Positions 4,476 through 30,270 of a DNA stretch of 64,000 nt are shown one piece after another. This DNA is from an uncultured Chloroflexia bacterium (GTDB lineage: Bacteria > Chloroflexota > Dehalococcoidia > DSTF01 > JALHUB01): the NCBI GenBank assembly GCA_963703345.1, contig OY969814.1:1472001-1536000 (forward strand). The letters are read 5' to 3'. The notes beneath the pieces are model-generated. The model saw only the letters and a program-made list of their open reading frames with translations, was not told where the DNA came from and did not search any database. Made by a program: the position numbers and the translations under genes. How positions within the stretch are numbered: the stretch's first letter is position 1; each line of letters opens with the position of its first letter.

Positions 4476-5303
4476 TCAGGCTCGGGCGCGGTAGCCCGTC
4501 CCCTGCGCCGAGACGTCCATTCCCGCCGTAAGAATGCGCTCCGCTGGCAGTGGACGCTCTTTCGTCTCGCGGAGGTCTATCGTCTTCAGATAGCGACGGC
4601 AGCGTTCGCAGACAGCCAGGCGGTGGACCTTGTCGTCGCTGGGGAAGAAGGCCAGCTCCTTCGGGTCGTCGTTGCCGCAGAACGGGCAGCCCAGGCGGCG
4701 AAACGCCCATTCCGCGTCGCAGCGCGAGCAGAGCAATCGCCTGCGGCCGCCGCTTCTCTCCAGCGCAGCCATGTCGGGCTCGCCGCCGCAGATCGGGCAA
4801 TAGCCGCGATACCAACTGCTCGCATCGACGAGGCGGCTGAGCGATTCGGCCCGTGCCCGCAGGAACGGGTACAGGGCGTTGTGCATGATAAACGCGAGCA
4901 GCGCGCCGTCTATGTTGCTGTTGCTCTCCGGCATGATTCCGCCGCTGAGATAAGCTACCGCCAGCGACTTCATGCGGTGCCGGCGACGGTGCAGCCAGGC
5001 GTGGATGTCGGCGAGCTGCTTGACGCGCTCCCGCCGGCACTCCGCAATCGCGAAGGCGATCTGCATAGCCAGGTCCGTCAGCTTGTCGGGGTCAACGTCC
5101 AACTCCTCGATCACGAGCAGCGGGTTACCGCGTTGCAGGCGGGTCCGCGCTTCCTCGGGCTTCGGAACGTCCGCTTCCATCGAGACCTGCACGCGCGATT
5201 GGATTTCCAGCAGCTTGCAGCACAGGTCGACGGTCTCCGCCAGCTCGGGGCGCTCCGCGGCTCCCTGTTCGAGGGCGGCCATGATTTCGCTGTAATCGTT
5301 CAT
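4476..5303 (-). CDS. fdhE: Formate dehydrogenase accessory protein FdhE
   Basis: CPICGGEP, R.L.CSRC..EW...RLGCPFCGN and CERCRRYLKTID motifs. Confidence 0.88.
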   Translation of the reverse strand: MNDYSEIMAALEQGAAERPELAETVDLCCKLLEIQSRVQVSMEADVPKPEEARTRLQRGNPLLVIEELDVDPDKLTDLAMQIAFAIAECRRERVKQLADIHAWLHRRRHRMKSLAVAYLSGGIMPESNSNIDGALLAFIMHNALYPFLRARAESLSRLVDASSWYRGYCPICGGEPDMAALERSGGRRRLLCSRCDAEWAFRRLGCPFCGNDDPKELAFFPSDDKVHRLAVCERCRRYLKTIDLRETKERPLPAERILTAGMDVSAQGTGYRARA

Positions 5304-20426: not shown

Positions 20427-21734
20427 CTACGTGCAGATTCGCCGCACGATCTCGTACAGCATCCGGACTCCCGTCGCCAGCTTCTCGACGGGGATTCGCT
20501 CGTCGTTGCCGTGTATCGTCGCTAGCTCTGCCGGCTCCAGCAGGCAGGGAACGAAGCCGTACGCAGTGACGCCGCGTCGCCGGAAAGCGCGCGAGTCCGT
20601 AAAGCCCGTCGCGATCGACGGGACGACGATGGCGTCGGGCACGACCTCAAGCGTGACCGCCTCGATGGTCCGGAACAGCTCTGTCTCCGCCGGCGAGATC
20701 GGCGTGTGCGACTCCATTACCTGCTCTATCTCGACTTGCGGGTCGCCGATCACAGACCGCACCTGCTCGATGAACGTCGCCGGGTCATGGCCGGGCAGCA
20801 GCCGGCAATCGAGCGTCGCCTCGGCGACCGAGGGGATGACGTTGGCTTTGACGCCGGCGTTGCACATCGTCGTGCTAACCGTGTCCGTCAGCAGCGCCGC
20901 AAGCAGCGGATTGCCCTCGGCAAGGCGGGCCAGCGCCGCCTCCGATGTCTCTTCGCCGGCGAGGCCGGCTTCCCGCAGGCGCTCCAGCATCGCCCGCACC
21001 TCCGGGAGCAGCTTGACCGGCCGTCGCCAGGACTGGACGTTGTAGAGCGCTCGGACCAGCCGCTCCAGGCAGTTATCCGCGTGGGGCACCGAGCCGTGTC
21101 CGGGCGCGCCGTGGGCGACGAGCCGCAGCCATAGCGGTCCCTTCTCGCCGATAGAGCAGGAAAAGATAGGACGCCGCAGTCCGAACATCTCAGTGCTGCC
21201 GTAGCCGCCCTCATTGATGACGTACTCGGCGTCGAACAGCTTCGGGTGGTTGGCGTCCAGCCAGTCGATGCCGCGGATGCCGCCTTGCTCCTCGTCGGCG
21301 CAGGCGAGGAAGAGGATGTCGCGCTGGAGCCGCAGCCCCTGGCGCTTCAGGATAAGCAGCGTCATCAACTCCATGACGCCCATCGACTTCATGTCGAGGG
21401 CGCCGCGGCCCCAGATGATGCCGTCCTTGACCAGCGCCGCGAAGGGGTCGACCTGCCAGAAGTCGCGCTCGGCGGGAACGACGTCGATGTGGTTGAGGAG
21501 GACGAGCGGGCGCTTCGAGCCGTCGCCGTGCAGCCGGGCCGCCAGGTTCGCGCGCTCCGGCTCCGAGGCGTGCGTCTCGCTGGCGATGCCGTTGTCTTTG
21601 AGCACGCTTGCCAGGAACTCGGCGCCGGCGCACTCGTTGCCCGGCGGGTTGCTCGTGTCGATGGCGATGTAGCGGCAGAGGAGGTCCGTCGCCTCGCGGC
21701 TCATAGCCTCCCAGTCGGTCCCTGCTTCGCTCAT
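20427..21734 (-). CDS. M20/M25/M40 metallopeptidase (ArgE/DapE-like)
   Basis: HIDVVP, GRGALDMK, DEE, GHGS and HG.DER motifs. Confidence 0.9.
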   Translation of the reverse strand: MSEAGTDWEAMSREATDLLCRYIAIDTSNPPGNECAGAEFLASVLKDNGIASETHASEPERANLAARLHGDGSKRPLVLLNHIDVVPAERDFWQVDPFAALVKDGIIWGRGALDMKSMGVMELMTLLILKRQGLRLQRDILFLACADEEQGGIRGIDWLDANHPKLFDAEYVINEGGYGSTEMFGLRRPIFSCSIGEKGPLWLRLVAHGAPGHGSVPHADNCLERLVRALYNVQSWRRPVKLLPEVRAMLERLREAGLAGEETSEAALARLAEGNPLLAALLTDTVSTTMCNAGVKANVIPSVAEATLDCRLLPGHDPATFIEQVRSVIGDPQVEIEQVMESHTPISPAETELFRTIEAVTLEVVPDAIVVPSIATGFTDSRAFRRRGVTAYGFVPCLLEPAELATIHGNDERIPVEKLATGVRMLYEIVRRICT

Positions 21735-21858
21735 GCAGTCTCCACCGTTCGCCGAAGTCGAGCGCATCATAACGCCTGTGCCGCTAAAGCTGTAGCAGCG
21801 CCTTCTGTCGCGGCACTGTGACTCCCGCCGCGTTCTTGGAAAAAGCTGACGAAACCCC

Positions 21859-21910
21859 TTGACATGATCGCCATATCTAGCTAGGCTATATATCTAGCGA
21901 GGCTAGCTAT
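21859..21910 (+). promoter_or_regulatory. sigma-70 promoter overlapped by tandem palindromic operators
   Basis: TTGACA-N17-TAGGCT; ATATCTAGC(T/G)AGGCTA repeated at 21873 and 21890, each part of an imperfect ATATCTAG-N5-CTAGATAT. Confidence 0.75.
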
Positions 21911-21929
21911 CAGGAACGCGGGAGGAGAC

Positions 21930-22349
21930 GTGGAAGCGCGCAGCAACGACTACTGGGAGATGCTCATCAACCGCAGCGTGCAGCGGTTCTTCCTTCTCTT
22001 CGCCCTGCACGAGCGCCCGCGCCACGGCTACGAGCTGGCCCGCGCCATACGCGAGGCTTGCGCCGGCTGCTGCGATCCTACCGACGCCATGATCTATCCG
22101 GCCCTGCGAGAGCTGGTCAACGGCGGCTACGTCGATTGCCGCGACGAAGTCGTCGGCGGGCGAACGCGCAAAGTCTGCCAGCTCACCGACAGGGGCGAAG
22201 AAGCGTATCGCGCGGCCGCGACGGCCTGGCAGCACATGCTGACGCCGCTGAACCGCGCCATCGATGCCGCGCTGCAATCATCGACGAAGAAAGCGACTTG
22301 CTGCTCTGGAATGGCAACGAAACGACCTGCGAAGTCGAAAGGAGACTGA
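21930..22349 (+). CDS. PadR-family regulator, Cys-rich
   Basis: HGYEL, IYPAL..L and R.RK...LT..G motifs; Cys clusters CAGCC and TCC. Confidence 0.88.
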   Translation: MEARSNDYWEMLINRSVQRFFLLFALHERPRHGYELARAIREACAGCCDPTDAMIYPALRELVNGGYVDCRDEVVGGRTRKVCQLTDRGEEAYRAAATAWQHMLTPLNRAIDAALQSSTKKATCCSGMATKRPAKSKGD

Positions 22350-22350
22350 C

Positions 22351-23157
22351 ATGCCCGAGAACAACGCCGAAGACATCAAGCGGGCGGTCCTGAGCCGCTA
22401 CAGCCTGCACGCCCAGCGACGCCTCGCCGCGCTCCAGGAGACCGGCGGTTCGTCCTGCTGCGGCGCGCCGTCCCCCGAAGTAACGAGTTGCGGCTGCGGC
22501 GAAAGCGACGCCCTCGCTGACGCCAACGTCGCCGGGATGCTCTACTCCGCCGAAGAGCTGCGCGACCTGCCGGAGGACGTGCTCACCTCGCTCGGCTGCG
22601 GCAATCCGACCGCCATCGCCGCTCTCAGCGAAGGCGAATCGGTGCTGGACCTGGGCAGCGGCGGCGGCCTCGACTGCTTCCTCGCCGCGGGGAAGGTCGG
22701 GCCAGCGGGCAAAGTCGTCGGTCTCGACATGAGCGCCGACATGATTCAGCTCGCCCGTCGCAACGCCGGCCGCATCGGCGCTGAAAACGTGCGCTTCCGC
22801 CTCGGCGAGATGGAGGACATGCCCTTCGACGACGGCTCCTTCGACGTCATCATTTCCAACTGCGTCATCAACCTCTCGCCGGACAAGGACGCCGTCCTAG
22901 GCGAGGCGCACCGCGTCCTGAAGCCCGGCGGACGGCTGCGCGCCTCCGACATCGTCTGGACGCGAGAGCCGACGGAGCAGCAGCGAGCGGACCTCGAAGG
23001 CTGGACCGCCTGCGTCGCCGGCGCCCTCACCGATGCCGACTACGTCGCCAAGCTGCGTGTCGCCGGCTTCGAGGACATCCGCGTCGAGCCGAAAGAGGGC
23101 ACGGCCCCGGACAGCAGCCTCTTCAGCGCCTATATCTCCGCGGAGAAGAACCGCTAA
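22351..23157 (+). CDS. arsM: Arsenite S-adenosylmethionine methyltransferase
   Basis: SSCCG, LGCGNP, VLDLGSGGG.DC, SNCVINL and W..CVAGAL motifs. Confidence 0.88.
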   Translation: MPENNAEDIKRAVLSRYSLHAQRRLAALQETGGSSCCGAPSPEVTSCGCGESDALADANVAGMLYSAEELRDLPEDVLTSLGCGNPTAIAALSEGESVLDLGSGGGLDCFLAAGKVGPAGKVVGLDMSADMIQLARRNAGRIGAENVRFRLGEMEDMPFDDGSFDVIISNCVINLSPDKDAVLGEAHRVLKPGGRLRASDIVWTREPTEQQRADLEGWTACVAGALTDADYVAKLRVAGFEDIRVEPKEGTAPDSSLFSAYISAEKNR

Positions 23158-23178
23158 GCCGCGCTGGATCCACGAAAC

Positions 23179-23433
23179 CTAGTTGATCGGATGACCGCAG
23201 TTGGGGCAGGCCGTAATGGGTCCGCCTGGAGAAACGATGAGCCCGAAGGTGGAGTGGCACTTTGGGCATGTGTAATTGGCCAGAGATTCAGGAGCGGTGG
23301 GACCCGTTGCCGGGACGAGAGGACCGCCACAACGCGGACAGTCGCGTTCGGCCTGGCCCACCTGGACGAGCGCGCCAAAGGTGCTGCCACATCGTGTGCA
23401 TCGGTACCCAAAGCTAACGTTCGCCTCGCTCAT
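23179..23433 (-). CDS. Double zinc-ribbon small protein (4x CxxC)
   Basis: CTRC, CPRC, CPKC and CPNC; ATGA overlap with the HNH stop; SD GGAGGGG. Confidence 0.65.
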   Translation of the reverse strand: MSEANVSFGYRCTRCGSTFGALVQVGQAERDCPRCGGPLVPATGPTAPESLANYTCPKCHSTFGLIVSPGGPITACPNCGHPIN

Positions 23434-23894
23434 TTCTCCCCTCCAATGTCGATACCTGTTACCCGTTTTGCGTCGGAGGCATCCACTATTACTTTGGTGC
23501 CAGACTTTATGCGTGTGGGCTTTCTGATGCGCGCTCCCGCCACATCGTCAGCGTTCTGAGCCCGAACCGTTATCTCCCCCGCCAGTTCGCTCACCGTGCC
23601 TTCATCTAGATGACGAACGTACTCCTCGTGTGCAGCTTTTTCTCGTTTTAGTCGTTCAACGGTCCACGCATTGATGTCCCCGTCGACCGTGCTGTGGCAA
23701 TTTGGGCACAATAGAATCAGGTTTTCATAGGCGTTCAAGTCCCGAGGGAGCATATGCGGATCGGCCCTCGGCCCACCTGCCTCACGGGCGAATATGTGAG
23801 CCTCCTCCAGCTCAACCTCCGAGTGAGGACGCTTGCACAGCGAACACATACCGCGGGCTAGACCCCAGAGCTTCTTGCGATCGGATTGGCGCAT
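23430..23894 (-). CDS. HNH endonuclease
   Basis: LW..A.G.CS.C, EAHI....GGPR, N.YENLILLCPNCH..VD and K..HE motifs. Confidence 0.85.
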   Translation of the reverse strand: MRQSDRKKLWGLARGMCSLCKRPHSEVELEEAHIFAREAGGPRADPHMLPRDLNAYENLILLCPNCHSTVDGDINAWTVERLKREKAAHEEYVRHLDEGTVSELAGEITVRAQNADDVAGARIRKPTRIKSGTKVIVDASDAKRVTGIDIGGEK

Positions 23895-25128: not shown

Positions 25129-25157
25129 TTGACACCGTCTCGGGCGCATCCTATAGT
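25129..25157 (+). promoter_or_regulatory. sigma-70 promoter of the suf operon
   Basis: TTGACA-N17-TATAGT. Confidence 0.75.
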
Positions 25158-25209
25158 TGGGGTAGATAGGCGCGCTTTCTCGAAGGAAGCGATAGCAAGG
25201 TGGTGTCGA

Positions 25210-25977
25210 GTGCCCGCGAAAGAGCCTTTCTTCAAGATCGACAATCTCCACGTCAATGTCGAGTCCCGCGAGATCGTCAAAGGCCTCAGCCTGGAAGTCG
25301 GTCGTGGCGAAGTGCACGCGATAATGGGCCCCAACGCCTCCGGCAAAAGCACCCTCGCCAACGCCATCATGGGACACCCGCGCTACGAGGTGACCGCGGG
25401 AAGAGTGCTGTTCAAGGGCGAAGACATCACATCGCTCGGCTCGGACGAGCGGGCCCGCCGTGGTCTCTTCCTCGCCTTCCAGTACCCGCTGGCGATTCCC
25501 GGCGTCACGATGGTCAATTTCCTCCGCACGGCGCTGCGTGCTGTCCGCGGCAGTGACGTGCCGGTCCGCGAGTTCCGGGCGATGCTGCATGAGACCATGG
25601 CGAAGCTGAAGATCGACGAGGACTTCGCCCGCCGCTACGTCAACGATGGCTTCTCTGGCGGCGAGATGAAGCGGGCCGAGGTGCTGCAAATGGGCATCCT
25701 CCAGCCCGACATGGCGATTCTCGACGAGACCGACTCCGGCCTGGATATCGACGCCCTCCGCACCGTCTCCGAAGGCGTCAACAGCCTGATGAGCAAGGAC
25801 CGCGCCATGCTGGTGATCACCCACTATCAGCGCATCCTGAACTACGTTCAGCCGCAGTTCGTCCACGTCCTCTTCGACGGGCGCATCATCAAGTCCGGCG
25901 GCCGCGAGCTGGCCGAGGAACTGGAAGCGGAAGGTTATGAACGCCTTACCGGCGCCGCTTCGGAGGTGGCTTCATGA
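25210..25977 (+). CDS. sufC: Fe-S assembly ATPase
   Basis: [20 protein letters not shown] and DETDSGLD motifs; GTG start inferred downstream of the promoter. Confidence 0.93.
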
Positions 25978-27380
25978 CCGACCGCAAGGCCGTCGAGATA
26001 GCCGAAGACGGCTACAAGTGGGGCTTCCACGACGAGGCGCGCTACATCTTCCGGACCGAGAAGGGCCTCTCGCGCAAGGTCGTCCAGCAGATCGCGGGCA
26101 TCAAAGAGGAGCCGGAGTGGATGCGGGAGATGCGACTTCGCGCGCTCGAGGTCTTCGAGTCGAAGCCGATGCCCGGCTGGGGGCCCGACCTTTCGGCGGT
26201 GAACCTGGACGATATGTACTACTACGCGCGCGCCAGCGACCGCGCTGAACGTGACTGGGAGGACGTGCCGGACTACATCCGTCAGACGTTCGACCGGCTG
26301 GGCATACCGGAGGCGGAGCGCAAGTTCCTCGCCGGCGTCGGCGCCCAGTACGACTCGGAGACCGTCTATCACAACATCCGCCAGGAGCTGTCGAAGCAAG
26401 GCGTCATCTTCGTCAACATGGACACGGCTGTCCGCGAGTACCCGGAGCTGGTCCGCCGCTACTTTGGCACCATCGTGCCGCCCGGCGACAACAAGTTTTC
26501 GGCTTTGAATAGCGCCGTCTGGAGCGGCGGCAGCTTCATCTACGTGCCGGAGGGCGTGCGCGTCAACGTGCCGCTTCAGGCCTACTTCCGCATCAATGCC
26601 GAGAACATCGGCCAGTTCGAGCGCACGCTCATCATCGCCGAGCCCGGCAGCTTCGTCCACTATATCGAAGGCTGCACGGCGCCTATATACACCAGCAACT
26701 CCCTGCACGCCGCCGTGGTCGAAGTCATCGTCAAGAAGGGCGCGCGGGTGCGCTACAGCACCGTCCAGAACTGGTCGACGAACGTCTACAACCTTGTGAC
26801 GAAGCGCTCCGTCGCTTATGAGGACGCCGTAATTGAGTGGGTCGACGGCAATCTCGGCAGCAAAGTCACGATGAAGTACCCGGCGATCTATCTCATGGAG
26901 CCGGGCGCCCGCGGCGAGGTGCTGTCTCTCAGCTTCGCCGGCCGCGGCCAGCATCAGGACGCCGGCGCCAAAGCCGTCCATGTGGCGCCGTACACCAACT
27001 CCGTCATAACCTCCAAGTCCATCAGCAAGGACGGCGGCCGCGCCAGCTACCGCGGCCTGGTGAAGGCCTACCGTGGCGCGAAGGGCATCCGTTCCTCCGT
27101 CCGCTGCGACGCTTTGCTTCTCGACGAAGACTCGCGCTCCGACACCTACCCGACGATGGAGATCGACGAGCGCGACGTCTCGGTCAGCCACGAGGCGAGC
27201 GTCAGCAAGGTCAGCGAAGAGCAGCTCTTCTACCTGCGCAGTCGCGGCATCGACGAGCAGGAGGCGACGAAGATGATCGTCAACGGCTTCGTGGAGCCGG
27301 TCGTGAAAGAGCTGCCGATGGAGTACGCGGTCGAGCTGAACCGGCTCATTGAGCTGCAACTGGAGGGGGCGATAGGCTAG
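25974..27380 (+). CDS. sufB: Fe-S scaffold
   Basis: [16 protein letters not shown] and GSKVTMKYP motifs. Confidence 0.96.
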
Positions 27381-27384
27381 CGCC

Positions 27385-28692
27385 ATGTTGAGCTCCGTTG
27401 CCAGCCGCGAACATCAGGCCATCGAGCAAATATCCGCTCGCAACGACGAGCCGGTCTGGCTCCTCCAGCATCGTCTGAAGGCCTCCCGCCTCTACGGCGA
27501 CATGTTGCTGCCGACCGGCCAGGAGGAAGAATGGCGCCGGGTGGACCTGCGGGCCGCGAACGTAGATGGCCTGGACCTGTCGGCGGGACCATCAGATGCG
27601 ACGGCGTCAGCCACGTTGCATGACGAAGAAGGCTACGGCGGCCAGATCGTGCAGCAGGACGGACTGACGCTGCGCCGGCGCCTCTCCCGCGAGATCGAAC
27701 GGCAGGGCGTGATCTTCACGGACCTTCATGCCGCCGCCCGAGAGCAGCCGGATCTCTTCCGAGCCAATTTCATGACAGAAGCCGTGCAGCCGATAGTCTG
27801 GAAGCTGGTCGCCTTGCACGCCGCTCTCTGGAAAGGCGGCGTCTTTCTACACGTCCCCGCCGGCGCTAATATCACCGTTCCTCTCCACGCCCGCGTGGGC
27901 GGGTCTGATGCCGAAGCCATCTTTCCGCACACCCTCATCGTCGCCGAAGAGGGCAGCAGCGCCACCCTCGTCGAAGAGCAGGTTTCCGACGAGAGCGGAC
28001 GCCACAAGTTCAGCAGCGGCGTCGTCGAGATCCTCGTGCGACGCGGCGCCGGCGTCCGCTACGTCGGCGTCCAGGACTGGAGCCGGAACGCCAACGCCTT
28101 CGCGACCATCCGCGCGATTGTCGACGAAGAAGGATACCTGGAGCTCGGCCTTATCGGCACCGGCGGCCGCACCACGAAGACCAACGTTGAAGTCATCCTT
28201 TCGGCGCCGGGGGCTACAGCCAGCATCGCCGGCCTCTTCCTGGCCTCAGGCGAGCAGCAGATGAGCTACGCCACTCTCCAGGACCATCGCGCGCGCAACA
28301 CGACGAGCGATCTGCTTCTGAAGTCCGCCATAAAGGACAGCGCCCTGCTGGTCTGGAACGGCCTGACGCGCATTCGTAAGGGCGCCGGCGAAAGCGATGC
28401 CAATCAGACCAGCCGCAACCTGCTTCTCGGCGAGAACGCCCGCGTAGCGCCGATTCCCGTGCTCGAGATCGAGGCGCACGACGTCGCCCGCTGCAGCCAC
28501 GGGGTCACCGTTAGCTCGGTGGACGAAGACCAGCTCTACTACATGATGTCGCGCGGTCTTAGCCGGCAGGAGGCGACAGAAGCCATCGTCGACGGCTTCT
28601 TCCGGCAGGGGCTGGAGCGCCTGAGCCTCGTCCGCGCCTACGATTTCGTCGGCCGTCTCCTTGAGCGCCGGCTGGTGGCGAAGGCAGCCTGA
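27385..28692 (+). CDS. sufD: Fe-S assembly protein
   Basis: EEWRR, P.LEI...DV.RCSHG and YYMMSRG motifs. Confidence 0.92.
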   Translation: MLSSVASREHQAIEQISARNDEPVWLLQHRLKASRLYGDMLLPTGQEEEWRRVDLRAANVDGLDLSAGPSDATASATLHDEEGYGGQIVQQDGLTLRRRLSREIERQGVIFTDLHAAAREQPDLFRANFMTEAVQPIVWKLVALHAALWKGGVFLHVPAGANITVPLHARVGGSDAEAIFPHTLIVAEEGSSATLVEEQVSDESGRHKFSSGVVEILVRRGAGVRYVGVQDWSRNANAFATIRAIVDEEGYLELGLIGTGGRTTKTNVEVILSAPGATASIAGLFLASGEQQMSYATLQDHRARNTTSDLLLKSAIKDSALLVWNGLTRIRKGAGESDANQTSRNLLLGENARVAPIPVLEIEAHDVARCSHGVTVSSVDEDQLYYMMSRGLSRQEATEAIVDGFFRQGLERLSLVRAYDFVGRLLERRLVAKAA

Positions 28693-28694
28693 AA

Positions 28695-29033
28695 ATGATG
28701 CGCGAGGCTGTGAAGGTAGCGGCAACGCGGGATATCCCGCCGGGAGCGGTCAAGGTAGTGGACACAATGGGACGCCGGATCGCAATCTGCAACCTCGGCG
28801 GTGAGTACTTCGCGGTCGACGACGTTTGCACGCACGACGGCGGACCGCTGGGCAGCGGCAGGCTCTGCGACGGCGAGATCGAATGCCCGCGCCACGGCGG
28901 TCGCTTCGATGTTCGCAGCGGTCGCGCCACCGTCTTTCCGGCTGTGAATGCGATTCGTACCTACCAGGTGTCAGTCAGCGGCGGAGACGTGGTGCTGTCG
29001 ATTCCCGGGGGGGCAGGAGGACGCGATGTTTGA
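28695..29033 (+). CDS. Rieske ferredoxin
   Basis: CTH and CPRHG..FD motifs. Confidence 0.88.
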   Translation: MMREAVKVAATRDIPPGAVKVVDTMGRRIAICNLGGEYFAVDDVCTHDGGPLGSGRLCDGEIECPRHGGRFDVRSGRATVFPAVNAIRTYQVSVSGGDVVLSIPGGAGGRDV

Positions 29034-30270
29034 CGTTGAAGCGATACGCAAGGACTTCCCGATCCTCGAGCGCACCGTGCATGGCAAGCCCCTGGTCTAC
29101 CTGGACAACGCCGCCACCACACAGAAGCCGCACGCCGTCATCGACGCGCTCGTTGAGTACTACGAGCACTATAACTCCAACATCCATCGCGGCCTGCACA
29201 CCCTCGCCGAGGAGTCGACAGCCCGCTACGAAGAGGCGCGGCAGAAAGTCGCGCGCTTTATCAATGCGCCGGGCCCGGAGAGTATCATCTTCACCCGCAA
29301 CGCCACCGAGTCGATCAACCTCGTCGCACAGGGCTGGGGACGCACGCATATCAGAGCCGGCGACGAGATCGTCCTCACGGTCATGGAGCACCACAGCAAT
29401 CTGGTGCCCTGGCAGATGCTGGCGAAGGAGACCGGCGCCGTTCTCCGATTCGTCGATATCGATGACGAAGGCCGGCTGCGCCCCGAGGACTGGCCACGCC
29501 TTGTCGGCGAGAGGACGAAGCTGGTCACGCTGACGCAGATGTCGAACGTGCTCGGCACTATCAACCCCGTGCGCGAGATCGCTGCCCTTGCCCACCGGTA
29601 CGGCGCTCTCGTCTTCGTCGACGGCGCCCAGAGCGTGCCCCACATGCCGGTAGACGTCCAGGATCTGGATTGCGATTTCCTGGTCTTCTCCAGCCACAAG
29701 ATGCTGGGCCCCACCGGCGTCGGCGTCGTCTACGCCCGGCTCAGCGTCCTTGAAGAGACAACGCCGTTCCTGACCGGTGGCCACATGATCAGCAGGGTAA
29801 CGCTGGAAGACTCCACCTGGAACGACCTCCCGTGGCGCTTCGAGGCGGGCACGCCGAACATCGCCGACGTAATCGCATTCGGCGCTGCCATAGACTACCT
29901 CACGGGCATCGGCATGAGAGCGGTGCGCCGCCACGAGATCGAGCTCACGGCCTACGCCTTGCAGGTGCTGTCGGAGATACCAGACGTGACACTTTACGGG
30001 CCGAAGGATGCGTCTGTACGCGGCGCCGCGGTCTCCTTCAACCTTGGGGAGCTCCATCCCCACGACATCGGCACCGTCCTCGACAGCTACGGGATCGCTA
30101 TTCGCGCCGGCCACCACTGCGCTCAGCCCCTGATGACGCGCCTGGGCGTTGTCGCCACCGCGCGCGCCAGCTTCTATCTTTACAACACTCGCGAAGAAAT
30201 CGACGCTCTGGTGCGGGGAGTCAAGGAGGCCGCGAAGTTCTTTGGAAATGTCATCAGCAGCCGAACCTGA
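29026..30270 (+). CDS. sufS: Cysteine desulfurase
   Basis: YLDNAATTQKP, SSHKM.GP and RAGHHCAQP motifs. Confidence 0.95.
   Translation: MFDVEAIRKDFPILERTVHGKPLVYLDNAATTQKPHAVIDALVEYYEHYNSNIHRGLHTLAEESTARYEEARQKVARFINAPGPESIIFTRNATESINLVAQGWGRTHIRAGDEIVLTVMEHHSNLVPWQMLAKETGAVLRFVDIDDEGRLRPEDWPRLVGERTKLVTLTQMSNVLGTINPVREIAALAHRYGALVFVDGAQSVPHMPVDVQDLDCDFLVFSSHKMLGPTGVGVVYARLSVLEETTPFLTGGHMISRVTLEDSTWNDLPWRFEAGTPNIADVIAFGAAIDYLTGIGMRAVRRHEIELTAYALQVLSEIPDVTLYGPKDASVRGAAVSFNLGELHPHDIGTVLDSYGIAIRAGHHCAQPLMTRLGVVATARASFYLYNTREEIDALVRGVKEAAKFFGNVISSRT

Follow-up and report, generated by a model that had tools for sequence, protein, structure and literature searches.

A padR-arsM unit in an uncultured Chloroflexota bacterium: a likely branch of the PadRars type of arsenic-responsive repressors

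RESULTS AND DISCUSSION

A two-gene unit with palindromes in its predicted promoter

The 64-kb stretch of DNA analysed here (the window) contains a padR and an arsM gene in tandem, preceded by a TTGACA hexamer and two overlapping palindromes (Table 1). The arsM gene starts 1 nt past the padR stop codon, just as the original prediction had it, and the AAGGAG sequence inside the end of padR makes translational coupling of the two genes likely. Since the peptidase gene upstream is divergent and the zinc-ribbon gene downstream is convergent, the unit consists of these two genes; a terminator scan found none after arsM. A promoter scan of positions 21400-23600 called no promoters at its threshold, because the candidate -10 hexamer is too weak. 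Beyond arsM, positions 23179-23894 hold convergent zinc-ribbon (FmdB-like) and HNH genes, and the open reading frames at 25129-30270 resemble an Fe-S assembly (suf) operon, judged by eye only.

Table 1. Features of the padR-arsM unit (window coordinates)
Feature	Position	Strand	Description
-35 hexamer TTGACA	21859-21864	+	predicted padR-arsM promoter, from sequence
Operator 1	21873-21893	.	21-bp palindrome, one mismatch; overlaps predicted -10; score 30.5; putative binding site
Candidate -10 hexamer TAGGCT	21882-21887	+	17-nt spacer; 3/6 to consensus; predicted
Operator 2	21890-21910	.	palindrome, one mismatch; covers predicted start site; score 23.8; 4 bp common with operator 1; putative binding site
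RBS-like GGAGGAG	21921-21927	+	before padR GTG, from sequence
padR	21930-22349	+	139 aa, GTG start; predicted PadRars-type winged-helix repressor, Pfam PF03551
Cysteine loop C44-A-G-C47-C48	22059-22073	+	predicted metalloid site, by conservation
Wing cysteines C70 (22137-22139), C83 (22176-22178)	22137-22178	+	branch-specific, by conservation
C-terminal C124-C125	22299-22304	+	aligned with Cys133/134 of the A. halopraeferens PadR; dispensable in branch
RBS-like AAGGAG	22339-22344	+	for arsM, within padR 3' end, from sequence
arsM	22351-23157	+	268 aa, predicted arsenite methyltransferase with N-terminal Cys-rich arm, NCBIfam NF008823

The unit had been predicted to carry two overlapping imperfect palindromes with a 17-bp period that cover the -10 box and start site of a TTGACA promoter. 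Both palindromes are there, with a single mismatch each, and so is the TTGACA hexamer; the -10 box and start site that they would cover are predicted only, and the 17-bp period proved to be local, as most relatives have 15 bp. The pattern ATATCTAG-N5-CTAGATAT has exactly two matches in the window, 17 bp apart, where a shuffled window is expected to have 0.01, and none of 100 shuffles reached two. When the complete 2.28-Mb genome was scored with a symmetric matrix trained on the 160 nt upstream of padR genes of the Chloroflexota branch described below, these two operators were the two best sites (30.5 and 23.8, with the next at 19.3). Only three further sites reached at least 13 bits and none was seen in a tandem array, and a wider regulon in this genome was rejected on these counts.

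The PadR protein and its cysteines

The window PadR passes the Pfam PadR model (PF03551) with 56.4 bits against a cut-off of 27, and its structural model (pLDDT 87.4) has LmrR, Rv3488 and other PadR proteins as top fold matches, LmrR and Rv3488 being nearest to it among solved structures, at 20-26% identity and a TM of about 0.6 (by query length). It had no match to HTH_5 (PF01022) in Pfam, the three HTH_5 matches of the genome lying elsewhere, and none to the MarR models in Pfam and NCBIfam; no NCBIfam model for its subfamily passed. The protein contains seven cysteines. The CAGCC motif that the original prediction placed just before the recognition helix is present as C44-A-G-C47-C48: in the model C44 ends helix 33-43, C47 and C48 lie in the loop ahead of predicted helix 52-64, and C70 and C83 are on two wing strands, which neighbour each other in a predicted hairpin. 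The C-terminal TCC to which it also drew attention is found as T-C124-C125, but this pair is not conserved in the branch, being present in 14 of the 115 close homologues with the anchoring motif and in 28/80 genome loci, and it is rejected as an essential branch feature.

The protein is predicted to form a homodimer, with a score of 0.72 against 0.01 for the best control, contacts that agree to at least 95% and a pLDDT of at least 78; of 30 solved homodimers 20 reach the mark used for this score, as does one of 23 single chains. PadR-family proteins dimerise through their terminal helices, and as comparable complexes (LmrR) have been solved, the prediction shows likeness to solved PadR dimers, to which the score may be owed. 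Residues 43-45 and 47 contact the partner subunit in the predicted dimer.

The methyltransferase

The product of arsM passes the NCBIfam arsenite methyltransferase model NF008823 with 289 bits (cut-off 263), and its best matches among solved structures are arsenite methyltransferases. Its C83, C171 and C221 align with cysteines 72, 174 and 224 of CmArsM, which are named as arsenic ligands in PMC5552862, and they are kept in 68, 69 and 69 of the 70 padR-linked homologues, respectively. Thus at least three of the four cysteines equivalent to CmArsM 44, 72, 174 and 224 are present; the equivalent of Cys44 falls outside the aligned stretch, with C36, C37, C47 and C49 as candidates. That the enzyme acts on a non-arsenic substrate, so that the unit is no arsenic switch at all, could be argued from its modest margin over the NCBIfam cut-off and from a second arsM-like copy in a marine relative (L070) that scores below it, but the structure matches and the conserved ligand cysteines speak against this, and we regard it as highly improbable.

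Conservation within the Chloroflexota branch

Close homologues of the window PadR were compared using the best 120 of 130, the window protein included. Within this set C44, C47, C48, C70 and C83 are kept in 112, 117, 118, 116 and 120 proteins, respectively, and hence the wing cysteines, to which the original prediction did not refer, are conserved as strongly as those of the loop; conservation thus holds for the cysteines of loop and wing, and fails for the C-terminal pair. Scanning genomes for the motif P[TS]DAMIYP yielded 93 relatives, and 80 of them, many being kin, were retained; judged by title, 77 are from Chloroflexota and two from Eisenbacteria. These loci are more diverse than the homologue set, and their cysteines have changed more. 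The loop CC is present in 77/80 of these loci and both wing cysteines in 57/80, while 24 of the 70 arsM-linked PadR proteins have two or fewer loop cysteines, and there is no single three-cysteine site common to all PadR proteins of the branch. The branch is also sparse: only seven of 401 genomes of the phylum matched at 1e-15, including the window's own genome, and one of these matches is an ordinary Cys-less PadR.

The linkage of padR to arsM proved to be widespread, with an arsM homologue downstream on the same strand in 70/80 loci, three loci cut by contig ends and seven without arsM. Five of these seven are close kin in which an ArsI/CadI gene and an MFS gene immediately precede padR (two of the five ArsI/CadI genes were scanned and both were above cut-off, the rest being 80-97% identical); of the other two, one has a DUF169 gene downstream and the other has no recognised arsenic gene. 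Arsenic genes of other kinds are found beside padR as well, with a divergent arsR-acr3-arsC block in one locus (L016) and acr3 upstream of padR in another (L042).

The operator is conserved along with the gene. Of the 76 branch loci with full upstream DNA, 67 have a site of at least 11 bits within 160 nt upstream, compared with 1/380 shuffles; these counts are in-sample for the matrix. Usually there are two to four sites with a 15-bp period, the 17-bp period being confined to the window's group and thus ruled out as the period of the family, and most close relatives have a TTGAC sequence no more than 45 nt before their best operator. Out of sample, two loci (L002 and L011) have a 53-codon gene inserted before padR, and there the tandem operator and TTGACA are shifted ahead of the insert, while in three others (L032, L037 and L043) a 13.6-bit site lies ahead of the MFS-arsI-padR block. 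The matrix trained on the branch also recognised the promoters of the more distant PadR group described in the next section: among 76 of these, two plasmid loci included, 67 score above 0 at offset +3 from the -35 hexamer, an anchor which fixes the first two matrix bases, and any other offset does so in at most five. A Cys-less PadR gene (L093) is also preceded by such a palindrome (score 18.3), so this operator type marks autoregulation by PadR proteins and not arsenic as such.

We considered whether the palindromes could be read by another regulator, such as the genome's own ArsR, with padR as a mere passenger. The genome does encode an ArsR, which has an ELCVCE motif and is next to arsC and acr3; against this, there is no operator site scoring at least 7 in the last 12 kb, which hold the ArsR-arsC-acr3 cluster, and the palindrome accompanies padR in different phyla and next to different cargo genes, which leaves very little room for such an arrangement.

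The window's genome has a second member of the branch (contig 43-456), which is 59% identical to the window PadR and has a C43-C44-G-C47-C48 loop and a His at position 83. The ArsR-led cluster lies at contig 2278159-2283752 and contains GcvH-like, DGC, arsC and acr3 genes. Reading the contig as a circle, the acr3 stop codon is at base 8, 34 nt before the second padR, which is without an operator; on that reading this padR may have been captured into the ArsR operon.

The wider PadR family

Three distant matches of the window PadR keep only G-C-C-x-P and precede ArsP-type permease genes (ArsP_1). A search with one distant member gave 1,074 matches, and in the best 120 of these C47/C48 are present in 120/120, with Thr at position 44 and Tyr at position 83 throughout; wing cysteines at positions 70 and 83 are found in 7/120 and 0/120, respectively, and the tail CC in 47/120. 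Gene order was read from the best 80 of 504 metagenome loci, 69 of which have at least 400 nt downstream of padR. The next gene encodes a flavin oxidoreductase in 37 of them, an ArsK-like protein (below the NCBIfam cut-off) in 11, ArsM in three and ArsP in two, and the remaining 16 include three ArsD (two of them scanned) and seven small Met-rich proteins of no arsenic family. The latter are found at L105, L106, L108, L113, L114, L116 (together with a SHOCT protein) and L158, belong to no family, and presumably resemble copper-type cargo.

The PadR protein of Azospirillum halopraeferens, WP_245593555.1 (135 aa), is 44% identical to the window PadR over 121 aa without gaps (E 8e-38), with C47/C48 falling on its Cys56/57 and C124/C125 on its Cys133/134. 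In a tree of 58 selected rows the 34 rows of the window's branch form one group (100/96), which is nested in a 54-row group that also holds the A. halopraeferens protein (98/86), and the four Cys-less PadR proteins of the outgroup fall outside the latter on long branches.

Comparison with PadRars and other arsenic repressors

From its species name and the reported cysteine numbers, we take WP_245593555.1 to be the studied PadRars, and its Cys56/57 and Cys133/134 to be the two cysteine pairs of that repressor, which reportedly heads a padR-arsV-arsW operon and is said to be released by MAs(III), As(III) and Sb(III), most strongly by MAs(III). As judged by sequence comparison, every testable feature of PadRars recurs in the window PadR: the PadR fold, a vicinal cysteine pair before the recognition helix, a C-terminal cysteine pair and a position at the head of an arsenic operon. 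Similarly, the window operator lies in the core promoter and shares its type with the operators of PadR proteins closely related to the one from A. halopraeferens. The differences lie in the cargo, which is arsM instead of the reported arsV-arsW, in the extra C44, C70 and C83 of the branch where the distant group has Thr, Ser/Ala and Tyr, in the C-terminal pair, which is mostly lost in the branch and present as Cys133/134 in PadRars, in the operators, which overlie the -10 box as tandem copies spaced by 15 or 17 bp, and in the hosts, which are mostly Chloroflexota.

PadRars of A. halopraeferens Au 4 is reported to be a PadR-family repressor responding to trivalent metalloids (Zhang, Wu, Tang, Chen, Rosen, Zhao 2022, Environ Microbiol 24:5139, PMID 35880613). 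The inverted repeat quoted for it is CCTTGA-N11-TCAAGG, which fits 55 of the 76 distant promoters at no more than two mismatches, and this repeat and the 21-bp operator of the branch are probably the same DNA in a different register. A second non-ArsR repressor is MarRars of Achromobacter As-55, which is reported to be released by As(III)/Sb(III) (bioRxiv 10.1101/2021.08.12.456183); like the proposed window repressor it is a winged-helix protein with a vicinal cysteine pair and a third cysteine, but it belongs to the MarR family, of which the window PadR matched no model, and it controls arsV. The original prediction had presented the unit as a candidate for a new kind of arsenic switch, and this is not borne out: with non-ArsR arsenic repressors on both PadR and MarR scaffolds already in print, categorical novelty is rejected, and the window PadR is a new branch of a published sensor type. 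Searches of the literature on PadR with arsM or arsenic gave no Chloroflexota padR-arsM unit, although the figures or supplement of the PadRars paper may list arsM-linked members, and those on PadR and metals gave nothing relevant.

ArsR/SmtB arsenic repressors, for which types 1-3, SpArsR and the ArArsR of an arsRMC operon are distinguished in PMC11868830, share with the proposed window repressor an autoregulated dimer, a cysteine site near the DNA-binding helix and control of arsM, and the window's C-x-x-C-C loop recalls the three-cysteine site of type 1 ArsR. They differ in carrying HTH_5, the window protein being a PadR and not HTH_5 by both Pfam and fold search. LmrR is without the loop cysteines in the printed alignment, and binds organic drugs, unlike what is proposed for the window PadR.

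Proposed regulation by arsenic

Taken together, we consider it likely that padR-arsM is an arsenic-controlled unit in which PadR represses its own promoter and is released by arsenic, as a Chloroflexota branch of the PadRars type. In this model two PadR dimers would bind both overlapping palindromes and block the -10 box and start region. Trivalent arsenic would bind to the Cys47-Cys48 pair beside the recognition helix, with the third sulfur provided by Cys44 or by Cys124/125 at the C-terminus of the partner subunit, and this would loosen the contact between PadR and DNA, so that ArsM is made and could methylate As(III) or MAs(III). The PadR-fold metalloid sensor at the heart of the original prediction is thus supported, as a candidate, by the cysteine conservation, the varied linkage to arsenic genes, the conserved operator and the homology to the A. 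halopraeferens PadR.

Another reading keeps PadR as the repressor of this promoter, but makes it a broad thiol sensor that leaves the DNA upon oxidation or contact with soft metals (Cu, Cd, Hg, Zn), with no specificity for arsenic. This would fit with the seven cysteines and the wing pair on neighbouring strands, with the Met-rich protein following 7/69 distant members, and with the glutaredoxin-like, CMD/AhpD, ferredoxin and UGSC-like genes that recur near padR at the branch loci; Rv3488, which we take to be a metal-binding PadR, is also among the top fold matches. The genes adjacent to padR are, on the other side, overwhelmingly of arsenic type and of several unrelated kinds, and the homologous cysteine pair is that of the PadRars species, which makes a broad thiol sensor unlikely and an arsenic-released repressor the better account.

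With regard to the inducer, we lean only slightly towards As(III) as an effective inducer, in view of the extra Cys44. The gain of this residue is the interesting variable, because published work on ArsR proteins (PMC11868830) has As(III) bound by three cysteines, and an ArsR with two cysteines responding to MAs(III) only. It is possible, though we would sooner doubt it, that the Chloroflexota branch has re-tuned an MAs(III)-preferring PadRars to As(III), by gaining Cys44, which completes a C-x-x-C-C triad inside a single subunit, and a further wing site (Cys70/Cys83), while its cargo shifted from defence against methylarsenite to methylation of arsenite. Six loci of one sub-branch are without Cys44 and Cys70 and also without arsM (five of them carry arsI), and the sister locus L035 keeps both Cys44 and arsM, a single event. 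Counter to such re-tuning are the 24/70 arsM-linked proteins with at most two loop cysteines, and three distant Thr44-type members which precede arsM.

An arsenic-released PadR at this locus would mean that a sensor type known from a single Azospirillum operon also governs arsenic methylation in uncultured Chloroflexota, and the family-wide 21-bp operator could be used to find target genes of PadRars proteins. The way in which anaerobes and sediment bacteria control their methylarsenic production bears on arsenic cycling, and the extra cysteines offer a compact test of how inducer preference evolves, as well as a possible new part for arsenic biosensors. If re-tuning did take place, arsenic methylation in Dehalococcoidia of soils, sediments and the sea would usually be under the control of PadR and not ArsR.

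Variation in gene content at the branch loci

Several branch loci contain additional genes close to padR. In the very close relatives L002 (4827-4988), L011 and L084, the gene between operator and padR encodes a 53-aa protein with C-x-x-C and a third cysteine, which has no match in Pfam or NCBIfam. At L084 (1905-2123), L004 and L008 the gap between padR and arsM is about 270 nt and contains a truncated copy of the C-terminal half of padR, of about 70 aa. Glutaredoxin-like genes just upstream of padR at L042 (4501-4707) and L010 (about 4500-4700) end with a TGA after a Gly codon, and from this sequence context they are possible selenoprotein genes.

At L043 (5415-9800), and also at L025, L027, L032, L037 and in part L048, an operator-like site heads a convergent block with a UGSC-like gene (below cut-off), a gene whose 475-aa product belongs to no family, and an acyl-CoA dehydrogenase gene; together with MFS-arsI on the other side this block may form a small regulon for handling organoarsenic compounds. 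The marine loci L070 and L077 (5389-8681), the latter from Candidatus Lucifugimonas marina, carry arsM-like genes as a tandem pair together with an APH-family kinase gene, and their PadR has a C-C-D loop and the tail CC and is without wing cysteines. Finally, among the loci L050 (5413-6069), L039 (6312-7034) and L053 (5686-6399) there is one with a CMD/AhpD gene separating padR from arsM and there are two in which a DUF169 gene follows, and these are candidate accessory arsenic genes.
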